In this document: piece by piece, positions 3,077 through 22,179 of the stretch
How the letters are laid out: the number at the start of each line of letters is the position of its first letter
Numbering within the stretch: position 1 is the stretch's first letter
Source of the DNA: Naegleria gruberi
Taxonomy: Eukaryota
Length of the DNA: 23,652 nucleotides
NCBI GenBank assembly: GCA_000004985.1
Contig: GG738952.1
Reading direction: 5' to 3' (one strand)
Notes under the pieces: generated by a model
Told to the model about the DNA's origin: nothing
Seen by the model: the letters and a program-made list of their open reading frames with translations, nothing else
Database searches by the model: none
Program-made: the position numbers and the translations under genes

Positions 3077-3989
3077 NNNNNNNNNNNNNNNNNNNNNNNN
3101 NNNNNNNNNNNNNNNNNNNNNNNNNNNNNNNNNNNNNNNNNNNNNNNNNNNNNNNNNNNNNNNNNNNNNNNNNNNNNNNNNNNNNNNNNNNNNNNNNNNN
3201 NNNNNNNNNNNNNNNNNNNNNNNNNNNNNNNNNNNNNNNNNNNNNNNNNNNNNNNNNNNNNNNNNNNNNNNNNNNNNNNNNNNNNNNNNNNNNNNNNNNN
3301 NNNNNNNNNNNNNNNNNNNNNNNNNNNNNNNNNNNNNNNNNNNNNNNNNNNNNNNNNNNNNNNNNNNNNNNNNNNNNNNNNNNNNNNNNNNNNNNNNNNN
3401 NNNNNNNNNNNNNNNNNNNNNNNNNNNNNNNNNNNNNNNNNNNNNNNNNNNNNNNNNNNNNNNNNNNNNNNNNNNNNNNNNNNNNNNNNNNNNNNNNNNN
3501 NNNNNNNNNNNNNNNNNNNNNNNNNNNNNNNNNNNNNNNNNNNNNNNNNNNNNNNNNNNNNNNNNNNNNNNNNNNNNNNNNNNNNNNNNNNNNNNNNNNN
3601 NNNNNNNNNNNNNNNNNNNNNNNNNNNNNNNNNNNNNNNNNNNNNNNNNNNNNNNNNNNNNNNNNNNNNNNNNNNNNNNNNNNNNNNNNNNNNNNNNNNN
3701 NNNNNNNNNNNNNNNNNNNNNNNNNNNNNNNNNNNNNNNNNNNNNNNNNNNNNNNNNNNNNNNNNNNNNNNNNNNNNNNNNNNNNNNNNNNNNNNNNNNN
3801 NNNNNNNNNNNNNNNNNNNNNNNNNNNNNNNNNNNNNNNNNNNNNNNNNNNNNNNNNNNNNNNNNNNNNNNNNNNNNNNNNNNNNNNNNNNNNNNNNNNN
3901 NNNNNNNNNNNNNNNNNNNNNNNNNNNNNNNNNNNNNNNNNNNNNNNNNNNNNNNNNNNNNNNNNNNNNNNNNNNNNNNNNNNNNNNNN
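3077..3989. other. assembly gap (poly-N, 913 nt); isolated N also at 3040
   Basis: Run of n characters. Confidence 0.99.
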
Positions 3990-5680: not shown

Positions 5681-6268
5681 NNNNNNNNNNNNNNNNNNNN
5701 NNNNNNNNNNNNNNNNNNNNNNNNNNNNNNNNNNNNNNNNNNNNNNNNNNNNNNNNNNNNNNNNNNNNNNNNNNNNNNNNNNNNNNNNNNNNNNNNNNNN
5801 NNNNNNNNNNNNNNNNNNNNNNNNNNNNNNNNNNNNNNNNNNNNNNNNNNNNNNNNNNNNNNNNNNNNNNNNNNNNNNNNNNNNNNNNNNNNNNNNNNNN
5901 NNNNNNNNNNNNNNNNNNNNNNNNNNNNNNNNNNNNNNNNNNNNNNNNNNNNNNNNNNNNNNNNNNNNNNNNNNNNNNNNNNNNNNNNNNNNNNNNNNNN
6001 NNNNNNNNNNNNNNNNNNNNNNNNNNNNNNNNNNNNNNNNNNNNNNNNNNNNNNNNNNNNNNNNNNNNNNNNNNNNNNNNNNNNNNNNNNNNNNNNNNNN
6101 NNNNNNNNNNNNNNNNNNNNNNNNNNNNNNNNNNNNNNNNNNNNNNNNNNNNNNNNNNNNNNNNNNNNNNNNNNNNNNNNNNNNNNNNNNNNNNNNNNNN
6201 NNNNNNNNNNNNNNNNNNNNNNNNNNNNNNNNNNNNNNNNNNNNNNNNNNNNNNNNNNNNNNNNNNNN
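5681..6268. other. assembly gap (588 N)
   Basis: Run of n characters. Confidence 0.99.
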
Positions 6269-14818: not shown

Positions 14819-16792
14819 TTAATAATAAATGTGTTTTTTAAGGTGAAAATCTACAAAACACTTTTGATGAAGGTAGGAATTACAAGCAGGACATTTGATA
14901 GGAGTGAGAGAATGAAAATTCTTACAATGCTCACAAAGTCCACGAGTTTTGACACTGGATGGGAAATGTATTGTTCTTTTGAAATTTGGGTTGGTGGATT
15001 CACAATGAGATAATGTTGCCTCTTGCAAATATTCATTGAGGGTCAAATTAGTTAAGTTTCTAACATGCTTATAAATTAAATATTGATTAACGAGAGCTAT
15101 ACGTAGAACTTCAAAGAGATGGATGATTTTCCAATTATTTACCTCGAAGGGAACATCCATTTTGTAAAGATTGATTCCAGACAATTCAACACAACCCATT
15201 CTTTCATATTTCTGAACAAGTGGTTGTGAATGAAATGTTTGATTACTTCCCAAATTAGTTAAAAAATTAACCTTTTTGTGATCATTGAGAGAAACAGCAG
15301 CCATGTGATTGTTTTTATGGACAGCTTGAGTCCACTTTTTAGTTTTGCTTCTTTTGAGATGTTTCAACAATCCATCACTGAAAAGAAATGTTGGTCTATT
15401 AGCCCTCACTGTCATGACATAATTCCATTCTTTTTCTGATAATTGATTTGCTAAATTTAATGATCCATAATAATTGTCGACACCTAAAATATGATTCTGT
15501 GGATCATCAATATGCTCAATAAGATCTAAAACAATTTTATCTGATTTATGTTCGTGTTTTGACAACCAAAATGCATAAACATACCCAACCCAATCAGATA
15601 GTGTATAATATTTCAATCCATAATTGTGAGGTTTGGTGGGGAGAAACTGTTTGTCACTAATCTTTCCCTTGAAAGGAGCAATTATTTCATCCACTGAAAT
15701 TTCTTTGAAACATTTCCAAAATTTTCTAGAATTCTCATTCACTCTCATTTCCAAAAAATCAGAGTCACATGTTAAATTCTGCTTGATTTGATTAAACATT
15801 GATCTACTCATTAAATATCTGAATATTCCATTTCCATAAAGGGCTGCATCAAGTCCTGATATTGTCCAATAATTGCAAATGTTTGGAATTTTACATGTAG
15901 TATTCATCAATATAGAAATATTTAAAAAGTTAGTAATTTGCTTTCTTGAAAACTTTTCTTCTAATATTTTGTTTTCAGTTTTACATTTTGTGAAATATTC
16001 ATCAAAATCAGGAAATATCTTTTTTGGAGTTCTAACTGGCTGATCATATTCTATATCTGAACATAATTCAATGGATTCAGATGGATTAGAGTAATTGTTC
16101 ATTCTCTTTCTCTTTTTGGATTTGTCTTTAATTGCAAGTTTATACATTTTAATCTCATCTGAGTAAATTTGCCAATATTCAACCTTTCTATTGGTTCTCT
16201 CATAAATGTGTTCTATAATATCAGGTGTCCAAATCAATTGAAATGATTCCTTTATGGATAAATCTTGTTTCACATTAATTGGACCAACTATTAGTGGACT
16301 TTCAATATTTCTTTCTGGTAAGGTTTTGTGTTGAATCCAATTATCAGTCAGTACTTCTTTTCTCAAATTTTTACATTTAATTTGACATGCACATTTAACT
16401 GTACAGGGAAGCTTATTCTTCTGACAGACACATGAAGTGCATGAAGTACAATTACTGCAAAATATTGTTCTTTCCATTGGAATTTCCTCTTCTGTTAATT
16501 TTCTAGCAACAAATTCCTCCTTCTCCTTCTTTGCATCTGGTGTTAGGTGTTTACAAGGTGGCATACTTTCTTCTTCATTGTCAACTCGTTCATTATCATC
16601 GTTATCATCTTCAAAATCATGACAAGAATTAGAAACTCCACTCTCTGATGGTGCTTGAGTATTGCCAGCAAGGTGTGAAAACAAATCATCATTGAGCAAT
16701 GACTCAATAGTACTATTATCATCGAAGAAGGTATCAGAATGTGAATGATCATTACATTCATCTTGAGTAGTGTGTTGGTGCAGTGAGTACAT
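14819..16792 (-). CDS. piggyBac-family (DDE_Tnp_1_7) transposase-derived protein with N-terminal CXC-like Cys cluster and C-terminal Cys-rich (PHD/RING-like) domain
   Basis: 657 codons, ATG rc 16790-16792. Colinear with T. ni piggyBac transposase: MSRSMFNQIKQNL versus MSRDRFDFLIRCL. ISVDEIIAPFKGK...KPHNYGLKYYTLSD versus LTIDEQLLGFRGR...KPSKYGIKILMMCD. LGVDNYYGSLNLANQL versus ITCDNWFTSIPLAKNL. MGCVELSGI...NNWKII versus KGGVDTLDQ...NRWPMA. The third catalytic position is Glu rather than Asp. C-terminus CEHCKNFHSLTPIKCPACNSYLHQKCFVDFH. N-terminal CSNCTSCTSCVCQKNKLPCTVKCACQIKC (coded about 16373-16459). Confidence 0.8.
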   Translation of the reverse strand: MYSLHQHTTQDECNDHSHSDTFFDDNSTIESLLNDDLFSHLAGNTQAPSESGVSNSCHDFEDDNDDNERVDNEEESMPPCKHLTPDAKKEKEEFVARKLTEEEIPMERTIFCSNCTSCTSCVCQKNKLPCTVKCACQIKCKNLRKEVLTDNWIQHKTLPERNIESPLIVGPINVKQDLSIKESFQLIWTPDIIEHIYERTNRKVEYWQIYSDEIKMYKLAIKDKSKKRKRMNNYSNPSESIELCSDIEYDQPVRTPKKIFPDFDEYFTKCKTENKILEEKFSRKQITNFLNISILMNTTCKIPNICNYWTISGLDAALYGNGIFRYLMSRSMFNQIKQNLTCDSDFLEMRVNENSRKFWKCFKEISVDEIIAPFKGKISDKQFLPTKPHNYGLKYYTLSDWVGYVYAFWLSKHEHKSDKIVLDLIEHIDDPQNHILGVDNYYGSLNLANQLSEKEWNYVMTVRANRPTFLFSDGLLKHLKRSKTKKWTQAVHKNNHMAAVSLNDHKKVNFLTNLGSNQTFHSQPLVQKYERMGCVELSGINLYKMDVPFEVNNWKIIHLFEVLRIALVNQYLIYKHVRNLTNLTLNEYLQEATLSHCESTNPNFKRTIHFPSSVKTRGLCEHCKNFHSLTPIKCPACNSYLHQKCFVDFHLKKHIYY

Positions 16793-16994
16793 TTTCTTTG
16801 AATTGGTTTTTTAATATTCATTCTAATATTAGTGTTTTTTAAATCACCATTATTTACTTCAATCTATATTAACACAAATAGATTTTCAACTCATCTTCAA
16901 TTTTTTTACTCTTGTTTACAATCAAATTGAAATTGGAACATCAAAGAATGTCGAGAATGTTGTGTGTTATCTGGAAATAAACAATAAAAAAAAA

Positions 16995-19900
16995 ATGAAA
17001 AGAACATCATCAGAGGCTGAATCTAACTCTGGATATGAAGGGCAAAAAATTGCAAAGATCTCTAATGAATCATCATCACCAACTCCATTATTGAATTCCT
17101 CTGCAGTGTCATCCGCAGCAGCAGCTAATAATTCAATGATGACAAAATGTTTTCCGATGGAATTAGGAATTTTGGACGAAATTTGTAGTTTTTCCTCTTT
17201 GGATACACAATGTTCATTGTATGCAACTTGTACATCAATTAGGAATATTATGGATGGGGATAATTTTTTATATCATTATCAATCAAGAAAGATTGCAATG
17301 TTAATGAAAGAAGCATGTAGAGAATTTACTTCAGAGGTAGATACGAGAAACTTCTTTCTTGGAATATGTTATAGATTAAATGCTGAAATTGCAATTTTGG
17401 ACAAGGAAATTAAGGAAAATATAATGATAGACAAGAATTTAGGAAGCTTATTTTGCTTTAATGTTGTTAAAACAGGAAATTCTTCATTCACTTCCTCAAT
17501 TAAGAAACTCCTTGTAAGAGATTCGAATCAGTATTTATTGATCAAGGTAGATTATGCTACTTTTCGATCTTTTAATCACTTACTTTCAACATTTGTGATT
17601 TCATGTAATAATAGAGTTCTTATTCATTATGAAAAAGCCAGTTTGGAAGAAATANNNNNNNNNNNNNNNNNNNNNNNNNNNNNNNNNNNNNNNNNNNNNN
17701 NNNNNNNNNNNNNNNNNNNNNNNNNNNNNNNNNNNNNNNNNNNNNNNNNNNNNNNNNNNNNNNNNNNNNNNNNNNNNNNNNNNNNNNNNNNNNNNNNNNN
17801 NNNNNNNNNNNNNNNNNNNNNNNNNNNNNNNNNNNNNNNNNNNNNNNNNNNNNNNNNNNNNNNNNNNNNNNNNNNNNNNNNNNNNNNNNNNNNNNNNNNN
17901 NNNNNNNNNNNNNNNNNNNNNNNNNNNNNNNNNNNNNNNNNNNNNNNNNNNNNNNNNNNNNNNNNNNNNNNNNNNNNNNNNNNNNNNNNNNNNNNNNNNN
18001 NNNNNNNNNNNNNNNNNNNNNNNNNNNNNNNNNNNNNNNNNNNNNNNNNNNNNNNNNNNNNNNNNNNNNNNNNNNNNNNNNNNNNNNNNNNNNNNNNNNN
18101 NNNNNNNNNNNNNNNNNNNNNNNNNNNNNNNNNNNNNNNNNNNNNNNNNNNNNNNNNNNNNNNNNNNNNNNNNNNNNNNNNNNNNNNNNNNNNNNNNNNN
18201 NNNNNNNNNNNNNNNNNNNNNNNNNNNNNNNNNNNNNNNNNNNNNNNNNNNNNNNNNNNNNNNNNNNNNNNNNNNNNNNNNNNNNNNNNNNNNNNNNNNN
18301 NNNNNNNNNNNNNNNNNNNNNNNNNNNNNNNNNNNNNNNNNNNNNNNNNNNNNNNNNNNNNNNNNNNNNNNNNNNNNNNNNNNNNNNNNNNNNNNNNNNN
18401 NNNNNNNNNNNNNNNNNNNNNNNNNNNNNNNNNNNNNNNNNNNNNNNNNNNNNNNNNNNNNNNNNNNNNNNNNNNNNNNNNNNNNNNNNNNNNNNNNNNN
18501 NNNNNNNNNNNNNNNNNNNNNNNNNNNNNNNNNNNNNNNNNNNNNNNNNNNNNNNNNNNNNNNNNNNNNNNNNNNNNNNNNNNNNNNNNNNNNNNNNNNN
18601 NNNNNNNNNNNNNNNNNNNNNNNNNNNNNNNNNNNNNNNNNNNNNNNNNNNNNNNNNNNNNNNNNNNNNNNNNNNNNNNNNNNNNNNNNNNNNNNNNNNN
18701 NNNNNNNNNNNNNNNNNNNNNNNNNNNNNNNNNNNNNNNNNNNNNNNNNNNNNNNNNNNNNNNNNNNNNNNNNNNNNNNNNNNNNNNNNNNNNNNNNNNN
18801 NNNNNNNNNNNNNNNNNNNNNNNNNNNNNNNNNNNNNNNNNNNNNNNNNNNNNNNNNNNNNNNNNNNNNNNNNNNNNNNNNNNNNNNNNNNNNNNNNNNN
18901 NNNNNNNNNNNNNNNNNNNNNNNNNNNNNNNNNNNNNNNNNNNNNNNNNNNNNNNNNNNNNNNNNNNNNNNNNNNNNNNNNNNNNNNNNNNNNNNNNNNN
19001 NNNNNNNNNNNNNNNNNNNNNNNNNNNNNNNNNNNNNNNNNNNNNNNNNNNNNNNNNNNNNNNATTGATCGTGTTGGAGAACCATCCTTCAGATTATGGT
19101 CATATCAAAAATACCAAACATGCCCTGGATTATGATATTNTATTGAAAGCAATCTCTGGAAATAGTAATCATCTTAAATATGTTCCAGTTGACCTGCCAT
19201 TTTTTGATGAACTAGTTCAAGTTGCCATGGAAAAAAACTTATCTTTATCTTGTCTTCCACTAGAATATCCACACTACAAACAGGTAGCTAAAACACTCAT
19301 AGCCAGAAATGGGTCATCTATTTATTATTTAGAAAAATCATGCTTCAATGATAGAGAAATTTTGCTGAGTTGTCTACGGGTTTCAGATTCATCAGATCAT
19401 GATTTTATTCTAAGCCAAGTTACAGATCATCAACTGTGGGATGATGAAGAAGTAATAAGAGCTCACTTATCATCGCACCCAAGACATGTCTTTGATGAAA
19501 TAGAAAGAAGAATATCCAGTAATAGATCATTAATACTTAAAATGGTACCAGAATTTGAAGTTTCTATTTATGAACTCTCTGAGGATTTGTGGAATGATAA
19601 AGAAGTTGTCATGCAAGTTTTTAATGCTATAGAATATAAGAAATTGCCTAAACATATCAGAAACGACAAGGAAGTATTATTGGCATACATAAAATACAAA
19701 CCAAATGAAGGAACAAAGTTTCTGAACCCTGAATTAGTCAAGGACTTGGATTTCCTAAAAAAGGTTCTTAACTATTCACCAAATGCCTACAAGTTTTTAA
19801 CTCCAGAGTTGAAATTGGATAGAAATTTAATTTTTGAAATTGTGGAGAATAATCCATGCCTATTCAAGTTCCTTGATTCATCCTTTAGAAATGATAGAGA

Positions 19901-20207
19901 GCTAATTATGATGATTGTTAAAAAATATGGAACCGATCACCTGGATGTCATTCCAGAAAGTCTAAGAGCCGACAAGGAATTGATTTGGTCATCTGTTGAA
20001 AAGAATGCCGACTTTTTCAACAAATATCCAAGTGCAATTACAGACAGAGAGTTGCTACTTCATGCTGTGAAACATTATCCATACACATTACAATATGCAG
20101 ACCCTCCACTGTGTGATGATTTTGAAGTAATCATGACGGCATGTAAGAATAGTGGAATGGCACTCAAATTTGCCTCTCCAAGATTGAAATTGATTCATCC
20201 CTTGTGA
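16995..20207 (+). CDS. F-box-like N-terminus plus DUF4116-type repeat protein (interrupted by gap 17655-19063)
   Basis: ATG 16995 preceded by A9; the track start at 16962 is GTG. FPMELGILDEICSFSSLDTQCSLYATCTSIRNI resembles an F-box. The C-terminal third carries tandem units of about 35-50 aa of the form L(R/K)xD(K/R)E(L/V)I..(V/I)(K/E)...(D/A)...F(L/N)..(P/S)..L (FRNDRELIMMIVKKYG..., LRADKELIWSSVEKNADFF..., IRNDKEVLLAYIKYKP...), typical of DUF4116. Stop TGA 20205-20207. Confidence 0.6.
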   Translation: MKRTSSEAESNSGYEGQKIAKISNESSSPTPLLNSSAVSSAAAANNSMMTKCFPMELGILDEICSFSSLDTQCSLYATCTSIRNIMDGDNFLYHYQSRKIAMLMKEACREFTSEVDTRNFFLGICYRLNAEIAILDKEIKENIMIDKNLGSLFCFNVVKTGNSSFTSSIKKLLVRDSNQYLLIKVDYATFRSFNHLLSTFVISCNNRVLIHYEKASLEEIXXXXXXXXXXXXXXXXXXXXXXXXXXXXXXXXXXXXXXXXXXXXXXXXXXXXXXXXXXXXXXXXXXXXXXXXXXXXXXXXXXXXXXXXXXXXXXXXXXXXXXXXXXXXXXXXXXXXXXXXXXXXXXXXXXXXXXXXXXXXXXXXXXXXXXXXXXXXXXXXXXXXXXXXXXXXXXXXXXXXXXXXXXXXXXXXXXXXXXXXXXXXXXXXXXXXXXXXXXXXXXXXXXXXXXXXXXXXXXXXXXXXXXXXXXXXXXXXXXXXXXXXXXXXXXXXXXXXXXXXXXXXXXXXXXXXXXXXXXXXXXXXXXXXXXXXXXXXXXXXXXXXXXXXXXXXXXXXXXXXXXXXXXXXXXXXXXXXXXXXXXXXXXXXXXXXXXXXXXXXXXXXXXXXXXXXXXXXXXXXXXXXXXXXXXXXXXXXXXXXXXXXXXXXXXXXXXXXXXXXXXXXXXXXXXXXXXXXXXXXXXXXXXXXXXLIVLENHPSDYGHIKNTKHALDYDIXLKAISGNSNHLKYVPVDLPFFDELVQVAMEKNLSLSCLPLEYPHYKQVAKTLIARNGSSIYYLEKSCFNDREILLSCLRVSDSSDHDFILSQVTDHQLWDDEEVIRAHLSSHPRHVFDEIERRISSNRSLILKMVPEFEVSIYELSEDLWNDKEVVMQVFNAIEYKKLPKHIRNDKEVLLAYIKYKPNEGTKFLNPELVKDLDFLKKVLNYSPNAYKFLTPELKLDRNLIFEIVENNPCLFKFLDSSFRNDRELIMMIVKKYGTDHLDVIPESLRADKELIWSSVEKNADFFNKYPSAITDRELLLHAVKHYPYTLQYADPPLCDDFEVIMTACKNSGMALKFASPRLKLIHPL
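17655..19063. other. assembly gap (1409 N); isolated N also at 19140
   Basis: Run of n characters. Confidence 0.99.
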
Positions 20208-20648: not shown

Positions 20649-22179
20649 TTAAAGCTCAAAGTCATGTCTTATTTGTGTCAGAATTGAAGTTTTCTTCATT
20701 AGTTTAGAAACTTCACTCTTCTCAAACTTATTCTTTGAAATATCTAGAAATTCCAATAATGGTAAAGAAATATTTTCATCAGATTTCTCAATTAATTTAA
20801 CAATCATACATTTTCTAGCTGAAATATGTTTTAAATTTTGTAAATTTCCATTCACAAACAATAATTCACTCAAATCACTTATTAAAATATTAATATCCAA
20901 ATATAGATATTCCAAATAGGAAAAATTATTACATTGTGAAATGTAGGTCAATCCTTCATTTCCTATTATGTTATTTGCCAAATCCAACAATTCAATTCTA
21001 TCCAACACTCCATCACATAAATATTTTACACCTCTTGATGTAATATTCGAAAATGGAAGAAACAAATGAGTGAGATTGTAAAGACTAGACGAAATTAACA
21101 TGACACCTTCATCTCCAATTTGATTAAATCCCAAATATAGCTTCTTTACATTCAATATAGAATCACTCATTGATAAATCAACAATACATTTGATTGGAAG
21201 TTTACAAAGCGATAGATCTAAATGAATTAAATTGGAATTTGGTAAATTTTGAAGATGCGAAGCACCTTCCATAATTGGATTATCACTCAAATCTAAAACT
21301 TTCAATTTTGTGAAGGATTGGAAATAATTTCCATGGATTCTTGATTGAGATCATTATTACATAATTTCAATTCTTCCAATTGTTTAAATTTAGAAATTTC
21401 CTTAACGCATGAATATCCTAAACTANNNNNNNNNNNNNNNNNNNNNNNNNNNNNNNNNNNNNNNNNNNNNNNNNNNNNNNNNNNNNNNNNNNNNNNNNNN
21501 NNNNNNNNNNNNNNNNNNNNNNNNNNNNNNNNNNNNNNNNNNNNNNNNNNNNNNNNNNNNNNNNNNNNNNNNNNNNNNNNNNNNNNNNNNNNNNNNNNNN
21601 NNNNNNNNNNNNNNNNNNNNNNNNNNNNNNNNNNNNNNNNNNNNNNNNNNNNNNNNNNNNNNNNNNNNNNNNNNNNNNNNNNNNNNNNNNNNNNNNNNNN
21701 NNNNNNNNNNNNNNNNNNNNNNNNNNNNNNNNNNNNNNNNNNNNNNNNNNNNNNNNNNNNNNATCAATCATTAATTGTGTCAAGTGTTCCATTTCAATTT
21801 CTGAAATTTTCTCCAAAACATCTCTCGGTAAAAGTCTTGGTAAACTCAAACTCGTTAATGAACATTTCAATACATTAATGTGTTCATATAATAAATGAAT
21901 ATTTTCCTTTTTAATATACATGTTCATTAAATTTAATTCCACAATTTTAAAACAATTATTTTCATTCATCTGATGATCATCATCAATTAGATGATGAGTA
22001 GTAATAAATTTCGTCATCATGATTTGATGAAAAGTATTAAATTGATTAAATTTTAAATGGATCGGAATGAGTGAGGAAACATATTTCCATTGTTTAGAAA
22101 CTCTACTGGTTGTAAATAATAAATTCCACGGAGTCATGTAATGGAAAATGACAAATAGAGTATCATTATCAAAAAACAT
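20649..22179 (-). CDS. F-box / ribonuclease-inhibitor-type leucine-rich-repeat protein (interrupted by gap 21426-21762)
   Basis: ATG rc 22177-22179. N-terminal DTLFVIFHYMTPWNLLFTTSRVSKQWKYV matches the F-box consensus (LP.EIL..I...L....L.....VSKrWr.lv). C-terminal exon-side has RI-type LRRs (LDLSDNPIMEGASHL, LYLGFNQIGDEGVMLISSSL, LDLANNIIGNEGLTYISQ). Stop rc 20649-20651. Confidence 0.65.
21426..21762. other. assembly gap (337 N)
   Basis: Run of n characters. Confidence 0.99.

Follow-up and report, generated by a model that had tools for sequence, protein, structure and literature searches.

Is an intact transposase gene without a full pair of transposon ends a gene that the host has taken over, or a transposon copy that can no longer move? 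This question is raised by a 657-aa open reading frame (ORF) that runs from ATG to TAA on the minus strand at 14819..16792 of contig GG738952.1 of Naegleria gruberi NEG-M. The contig, 23,652 nucleotides long and analyzed here in full as the window, is a whole 23.6-kb scaffold, and the ORF is unannotated, being absent from the N. gruberi gene set. An earlier note, made from the DNA letters alone, had described it as a candidate domesticated piggyBac transposase. Our analysis indicates that it belongs to a Naegleria/heterolobosean family of piggyBac-like transposons and is an intact copy that has probably been immobilized and weakened in its catalysis. On this reading, it is not an active element, nor is it an established host gene. 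We consider it immobilized and weakened because it has no recognizable 5' repeat, its 3' end is flanked by TTAT, and it carries Glu536 at the third catalytic position, where the equivalent D447E substitution in Trichoplusia ni piggyBac lowers excision by ~300-fold. Since it has one terminal repeat only, it is "PGBD-like" by the definitions of Bouallegue et al. 2017 (PMC5381638), in which this name denotes a copy with one terminal repeat that is neither a piggyBac-like element (PBLE) nor a domesticated piggyBac-derived gene (PGBD).

The affiliation with the piggyBac superfamily is borne out by the catalytic core. The DDE_Tnp_1_7 domain (aa 279-569; 15086..15958, minus strand) was matched by Pfam with E=5.7e-34 and 118.4 bits, against a gathering cutoff of 22.4, and the ORF aligned with T. 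ni piggyBac (PDB 6X67). The C-terminal Cys-rich domain (CRD), which the earlier note had rightly seen as retained, lies at aa 620-650 (CEHCKNFHSLTPIKCPACNSYLHQKCFVDFH; 14843..14935, minus strand) in the alignment with relatives, and its pattern, C-x2-C...C-x2-C...H-x2-C...H, is that of a cross-brace. The DDE_Tnp_1_7 core, the first two catalytic Asp residues, and the CRD are thus shared with T. ni piggyBac/IFP2. The triad was assigned by phmmer against 6X67, which equates D368 (SVDEII; 15689..15691) with piggyBac D268, D439 (GVDNYYGS; 15476..15478) with D346, and E536 (GCVELSG, codon GAA; 15185..15187) with D447, all on the minus strand. The window ORF therefore reads D368-D439-E536 where the superfamily has D-D-D, and the Glu that had been proposed at the third position is real. 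An AlphaFold2 model built from a 3-sequence alignment was unusable (mean predicted local distance difference test score 34, predicted template modeling score 0.26).

How unusual is this Glu? When the top relatives were aligned with a hidden Markov model, Asp occupied the third catalytic position in 120 of 123 sequences, Ala in one, and Glu in two, one of which is the window copy itself. The second N. gruberi copy, NAEGRDRAFT_77104, reads GCVDLSG and hence has Asp at this site, so that, as far as these two proteins go, Glu536 is private to the window copy within the N. gruberi pair. In T. ni piggyBac, D447E reduced excision in a blue/white assay to 4.4e-5, compared with 1.4e-2 for the wild type (PMC2533014). 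A second departure from T. ni piggyBac, Gly539 at the position of D450, has a different distribution: Gly occurs there in all Naegleria copies, even in that of N. lovaniensis, which is intact and has both terminal repeats. The window copy further differs from T. ni piggyBac in Glu at the D447 position, the TTAT flank, and the lack of a recognizable 5' repeat.

The relatives of the ORF show what kind of sequence it came from. The closest annotated proteins were those of N. lovaniensis (P0001, 663 aa, 44% identity) and N. fowleri (P0002, 408 aa). A profile search of 1.84 billion protein representatives returned 10,287 relatives, and among the nearest of these are two further gene models of N. 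fowleri, located on other contigs, a protein of the heterolobosean Acrasis kona, and NAEGRDRAFT_77104 (P0024), a 126-aa protein encoded on a 1,190-bp scaffold and 88% identical to the C-terminus of the window ORF. No further N. gruberi copies were found with a 14-sequence profile search, whose index misses known members.

In N. lovaniensis, the gene (C9374_009882) encodes an intact 663-aa ORF with GCVDKSG at the third site and a D-D-D triad. It is bracketed at 9751-12507 of locus L001 by a 30-nt inverted repeat, TTAA/CCTTTACGCCTAACGAAAAAT ... ATTTTTCGATAGGCGGAAGGG/TTAA (slashes mark element boundaries), with the ends reading TTAA/CCTTTACGCC...GGCGGAAGGG/TTAA. The inverted-repeat score was 21, whereas the maximum in 300 dinucleotide shuffles was 17 (0/300), and we regard this copy as a candidate autonomous element. 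It lies 45 nt upstream of a WD40 gene, of which N. fowleri protein P0013 is the orthologue. The flanks outside the TTAA (TTTCC/GGAAA) are complementary, giving a palindromic target.

Similarly, three N. fowleri contigs each hold a copy; the flanks are unrelated, and the DNA of the copies is 96-98% identical over 1.55-2.8 kb. In two copies with unrelated upstream flanks, the similarity begins exactly at TTAA/CCCT(T/C)C. The copy at L004 is complete, with TTAA on both sides and an end reading ...GGCGGAAGGG/TTAA; the other two are truncated, and the reading frames are broken in all three. The gene models FDP41_010905, FDP41_013642, FDP41_009240, and FDP41_009241 are pieces of this one transposon family, whose fragments lie at L002 10001-11475, L003 6001-6948, and L004 6001-7827. 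In the L002 copy, both ends are truncated and an annotated "intron" spans a frameshift. The earlier note had named near-identical copies flanked by terminal inverted repeats and TTAA duplications as a finding that would refute domestication; in the sister species, there are the near-identical, TTAA-bounded copies of N. fowleri (one complete) and the intact N. lovaniensis copy with TTAA and terminal repeats.

The ends of these elements are more alike than their genes. The terminal 67 nt at the 3' end are 91% identical between N. lovaniensis (L001 12442-12507) and N. fowleri (L004 8572-8638), whereas the coding sequences share ~74% identity and the species have reached saturation at synonymous sites; this points to constraint on the element's 3' end, as would be expected for ends that are bound by the transposase. 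Outside Naegleria, the Acrasis kona relative AKO1_004894 (629 aa), which also bears the N-terminal cluster described below, lies at L005 3063-7107 within TTAA/CCTTCTGACAAC ... GTCGGCAGAAGG/TTAA. This candidate pair, TTAA/CCTTC...GAAGG/TTAA, would delimit a putative ~4-kb element and is supportive only. The N. lovaniensis genome has been reported to contain 29 RepeatMasker "PiggyBac" fragments (PMC6125883). The family is specific for TTAA, its terminal repeats are imperfect, ~20 bp long, and start with CC(C)TT, and the sister-species copies resemble piggyBac-like elements in their TTAA duplications, CC(C)TT repeats, and ~2.8 kb size.

Where, then, are the ends of the window copy? Homology to the N. 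lovaniensis and N. fowleri 3' ends places its 3' terminus, together with the subterminal motif, at 14688..14733 on the minus strand (plus strand CCCTTTGTTTGGTATTGAAAAATTGGCAAAGGTTCCCCCTATTTTC). In local alignments of the window 3' flank with these ends, the observed score was reached by 2/500, 0/300, and 2-4/300 shuffles. From 14684, the plus strand reads TTAT/CCCTTTGTTTGGTATTGAAAAATTGGCAAAGGTTCCCCCTATTTTC, the N. lovaniensis counterpart being TTAA/CCCTTCCGCCTATCGAAAAATAAAAATTGAAAAAGTTCCCCCAGTATTTC, and the conserved 3' subterminal motif is AAAAATTG...GTTCCCCC. The TTAT at 14684..14687 (no strand) thus occupies the site at which TTAA would be the canonical target-site duplication; both TTAT and ATAA have been reported as target-site duplications of piggyBac elements, although they are rare (PMC5381638). 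The earlier note had found no visible ends and had singled out one string, ctattttctagtcgcTTAA at 14729-14747, as resembling a piggyBac end. The string is there and overlaps the subterminal motif of the element's 3' end, but the real terminus is at 14688 and not at the TTAA of that string, so the supposed lack of ends holds for the 5' side only.

On the 5' side, no terminal repeat was recognizable. The N. lovaniensis-type terminal repeat had no match with up to 3 mismatches in the whole window or in N. fowleri L002, no terminus of the TTAA+CC type lies within 300 nt upstream of the transposase ATG, and when the 5' ends from N. lovaniensis and N. fowleri were aligned locally with window positions 16793-17300, the scores were no better than those of shuffles. 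A weak candidate for a decayed 5' terminus, TTTG/CCCTTCATATCC at 17031..17046 (minus strand), contains the only CC[CT]TT within 500 nt upstream, and its distance to the ATG is 250 nt (246 nt for the N. lovaniensis end); it lacks statistical support and falls within the first codons of the neighboring ORF. A complete PBLE, as defined in PMC5381638, has two terminal inverted repeats and a TTAA target-site duplication, and the window copy has the 3' end only, with TTAT beside it. Together with Glu536, these features agree with the earlier view that an active canonical piggyBac is unlikely here.

The extra N-terminal cluster was the other ground on which domestication had been proposed. We located nine Cys residues at aa 112-140 (CSNCTSCTSCVCQKNKLPCTVKCACQIKC; 16373..16459, minus strand) with the pattern C-x2-C-x2-C-x2-C-x-C-x6-C-x3-C-x-C-x3-C, which, taken as a pattern alone, is compatible with a Zn3Cys9 cluster. 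All Naegleria copies covering this region have the cluster, as do at least 14 clade relatives, which come from Heterolobosea and from metagenome/Logan contigs. In an automatic alignment of 14 sequences, seven of the nine Cys are invariant and one is nearly so, while some rows show a shift of the second (C115). Asp occupies the third catalytic site in those cluster-bearing relatives examined whose sequences extend to it. Because the cluster occurs in these relatives, among them the intact N. lovaniensis copy with its D-D-D triad and flanking terminal repeats, its distribution indicates that it is a trait of the clade and not an addition made upon domestication. The earlier note had said that its reading would also fall if realignment restored the third catalytic Asp and the cluster proved common to active elements of the lineage; the cluster is lineage-wide, and the window copy keeps E536.

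Is the cluster a tesmin/TSO1-type CXC domain, as its second half had suggested? Like that of LIN54 (PDB 5FD3), it has nine Cys, with a second half of the form C-x-C-x6-C-x3-C-x-C-x2-3-C. Unlike the tandem pair in LIN54, however, the cluster of the clade is a single unit, its first half is spaced C-x2-3-C-x2-3-C-x2-C, and all Pfam matches are below the gathering score. The window cluster itself had no Pfam match, and so did not reach the gathering score of 23.5 bits for TCR (PF03638, tesmin/TSO1 CXC); that of N. lovaniensis gave 11 bits (E=0.56). Sub-threshold TCR matches were obtained for 9 of the 14 clade members (best E=0.0056), the other Pfam matches among them being one to MSL2-CXC and one to metallothionein, and a profile of the 14 sequences recovered only LIN54 (5FD3) from the PDB, with E=7. 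"CXC-like" is therefore a fair description of the sequence, with tesmin family membership not established.

What might such a module do? N-terminal zinc modules in other transposases and the CXC domain of LIN54 have DNA-binding roles, and for this reason we infer that the cluster may bind DNA, for example, at the conserved subterminal motif. The fungal KDZ (Kyakuja-Dileera-Zisupton) transposases carry a CxC zinc module, presumed to bind DNA, N-terminal to a DDE-type transposase; they belong to a different superfamily and would be another case of such a fusion. In T. ni piggyBac, the place of the CXC-like module is taken by part of the usually unconserved, disordered N-terminus, and for piggyBac elements in general the N-terminus has been reported as unconserved and unalignable (PMC5381638). 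Our literature search, which did not cover Repbase, found nothing linking piggyBac with tesmin or CXC and no earlier description of a CXC-bearing piggyBac architecture, and it is here that the novelty lies.

piggyBac transposes by cut-and-paste, with a D-D-D core that acts at TTAA and a Cys-rich domain that binds the element ends. The Naegleria family would move in the same way: its RNase-H-like D-D-D core would cut and join DNA at TTAA, its CRD would bind the ends, and the lineage-typical nine-Cys module would add a second contact with DNA or chromatin. The window copy would then be a member that has kept the protein and the 3' end, with no recognizable 5' repeat, a TTAT flank, and Glu in place of the third catalytic Asp.

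Could the host nevertheless have put this copy to use? A domestication specific to N. gruberi would have retained the immobilized copy as a DNA-binding protein (through the CXC and CRD modules) or as an attenuated nuclease; Glu536 would then be an adaptation that dampens catalysis. Like PGBD1-5, PiggyMac, Tpb2, and Kobuta, the window ORF is piggyBac-derived and lacks a full terminal-repeat pair, and, like some PGBDs, it has an altered catalytic residue. The 657-aa ORF is intact despite the missing 5' repeat and the non-TTAA flank; it is hemmed in by host genes, with an upstream spacer of ~200 nt. It keeps 26 of 28 family-conserved residues, and its sole private change is the catalytic D to E. 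If ~6% amino-acid divergence had been neutral on the window copy, the probability of finding no stop codon would be ~0.05, which suggests that the ORF was under some coding constraint until fairly recently. This constraint is the chief point for a host function, and it weighs against the interpretation as a stranded transposon copy, as do the undefined 5' boundary, the fact that N. gruberi copy number is known from protein searches only, and an unexplained inverted repeat that is described below.

Domesticated PGBDs, however, are recognized by being single copy, by an orthologous position, and by Ka/Ks evidence (PMC5381638), and the window ORF differs from them on the first two counts. NAEGRDRAFT_77104 is 88% identical to it over 126 aa, and the nearest relatives of the window ORF are bona fide transposon copies. 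The flanking genes of the transposase loci all differ among N. gruberi, N. lovaniensis, and N. fowleri, with no shared synteny; the copies in the latter two species are transposon-bounded or truncated, and by tblastx the transposase is the only part that the window has in common with L001 and L002. The orthologous presence in related species for which the earlier note had proposed to look is thus absent from N. lovaniensis and N. fowleri, whose copies are at non-orthologous positions. A DUF4116 gene is found divergently upstream in both N. gruberi and N. lovaniensis; synteny through these genes was rejected, as the two repeat proteins are 21% identical, have different architectures, and are not orthologues.

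As for selection, synonymous sites are saturated between the species (synonymous differences per site, pS, 0.72-0.76), which makes the interspecies ratio of nonsynonymous to synonymous substitution (dN/dS, or Ka/Ks) uninformative. Around the first catalytic Asp, the protein segments of N. lovaniensis and N. fowleri share 97% identity despite a pS of 0.75, and this pattern speaks for strong past constraint on the transposase, which would fit an active transposon lineage or a host gene alike. Between the two N. gruberi copies, conserved and other sites changed at about equal rates (1/10 and 14/116, respectively), which argues against a host function. With mobile relatives, a second N. gruberi copy, no orthologous position, and a lineage-wide cluster, we do not favor the proposed domestication; we regard it as unlikely, and it retains what probability it has because the ORF seems to have been constrained until fairly recently.

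The unexplained feature is a 21-nt inverted repeat. One arm lies 32 nt upstream of the transposase ATG (16825..16845, minus strand), and the partner arm, GATTTAAAAATCAGTAATATT, lies 33 nt upstream of a 5S rRNA gene (14429..14449, plus strand). Both arms contain TTAA; the 21-mer is GATTTAAAAAWCASTAATATT, the arms match at 19 of 21 positions, the repeat occurs once in the window, and 0-2 of 300 dinucleotide shuffles reached its score. Together, the arms enclose the transposase ORF and the 5S rRNA gene, which is full-length (14483-14601, plus strand; Rfam RF00001, 100.3 bits, E=3.7e-21), and is followed by a T-run. The 5S gene and the transposase ORF are convergent, with 87 nt between the 3' end of the element and the 5S gene. 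The two arms may share a promoter-like motif or resemble each other by chance.

A joint reading would combine these observations. In it, the N. gruberi copy would be a lineage-specific exaptation that keeps both zinc modules, has an attenuated D-D-E site, and is expressed from a new upstream region sharing the 21-nt motif with the 5S gene; independently, the CXC-bearing piggyBac clade of Heterolobosea and metagenome eukaryotes would form a subgroup of undescribed architecture, with a tesmin-like CXC unit as the reader of transposon ends or chromatin. We consider this combination quite improbable as a whole.

Alternatively, the inverted repeat could mark the true ends (TTAA/AAATCAGTAATATT...) of an active or recently active N. 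gruberi element that carries the 5S gene as cargo convergent with the transposase gene, a view favored by the near-perfect, unique, TTAA-containing repeat, by the presence of a bona fide 5S rRNA gene in the interval from one arm to the ORF, and by the position of the arms 32-33 nt from the starts of two inward-pointing genes. This view is very unlikely because the homology-defined 3' terminus (CCCTT and the subterminal motif) lies inside the interval, at 14688, and because N. lovaniensis L001 and N. fowleri L002 have no 5S gene; in addition, the arms do not start with the C-rich motif common to the relatives, Glu536 speaks against activity, and equal spacing to both gene starts fits a promoter-like motif or chance equally well. 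Neither L001 nor L002 yielded any Rfam match at gathering score, 5S or other, and 5S rRNA as a conserved cargo of the element was rejected.

Two ORFs neighboring the transposase match NAEGRDRAFT_76287 and NAEGRDRAFT_76288 of N. gruberi exactly. A neighboring F-box-like/DUF4116 ORF at 16995-20207 is interrupted by a 1,409-nt N run, one of eight N runs (assembly gaps) in the window; these lie at 3077-3989, 5681-6268, 17655-19063, and 21426-21762, the rest being smaller. NAEGRDRAFT_76288 (12471-14315, minus strand) has a Cys/Arg/Ser-rich low-complexity insert (CCRCEESRECCRECCRRSC...) and clusters at 90% identity with NAEGRDRAFT_53384 (974 aa, on a 236-kb scaffold). In view of this clustering, the 23.6-kb scaffold may represent either a haplotype that has diverged or a segmental duplicate.

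Taken as a probably immobilized transposon copy, this locus gives an apparent domestication candidate an ordinary explanation. Furthermore, the comparison with its relatives documents a piggyBac clade with a conserved N-terminal nine-Cys CXC-like module. Finally, since to our knowledge there are few genetic tools for Naegleria, the N. lovaniensis copy matters as a candidate autonomous element for this genus.

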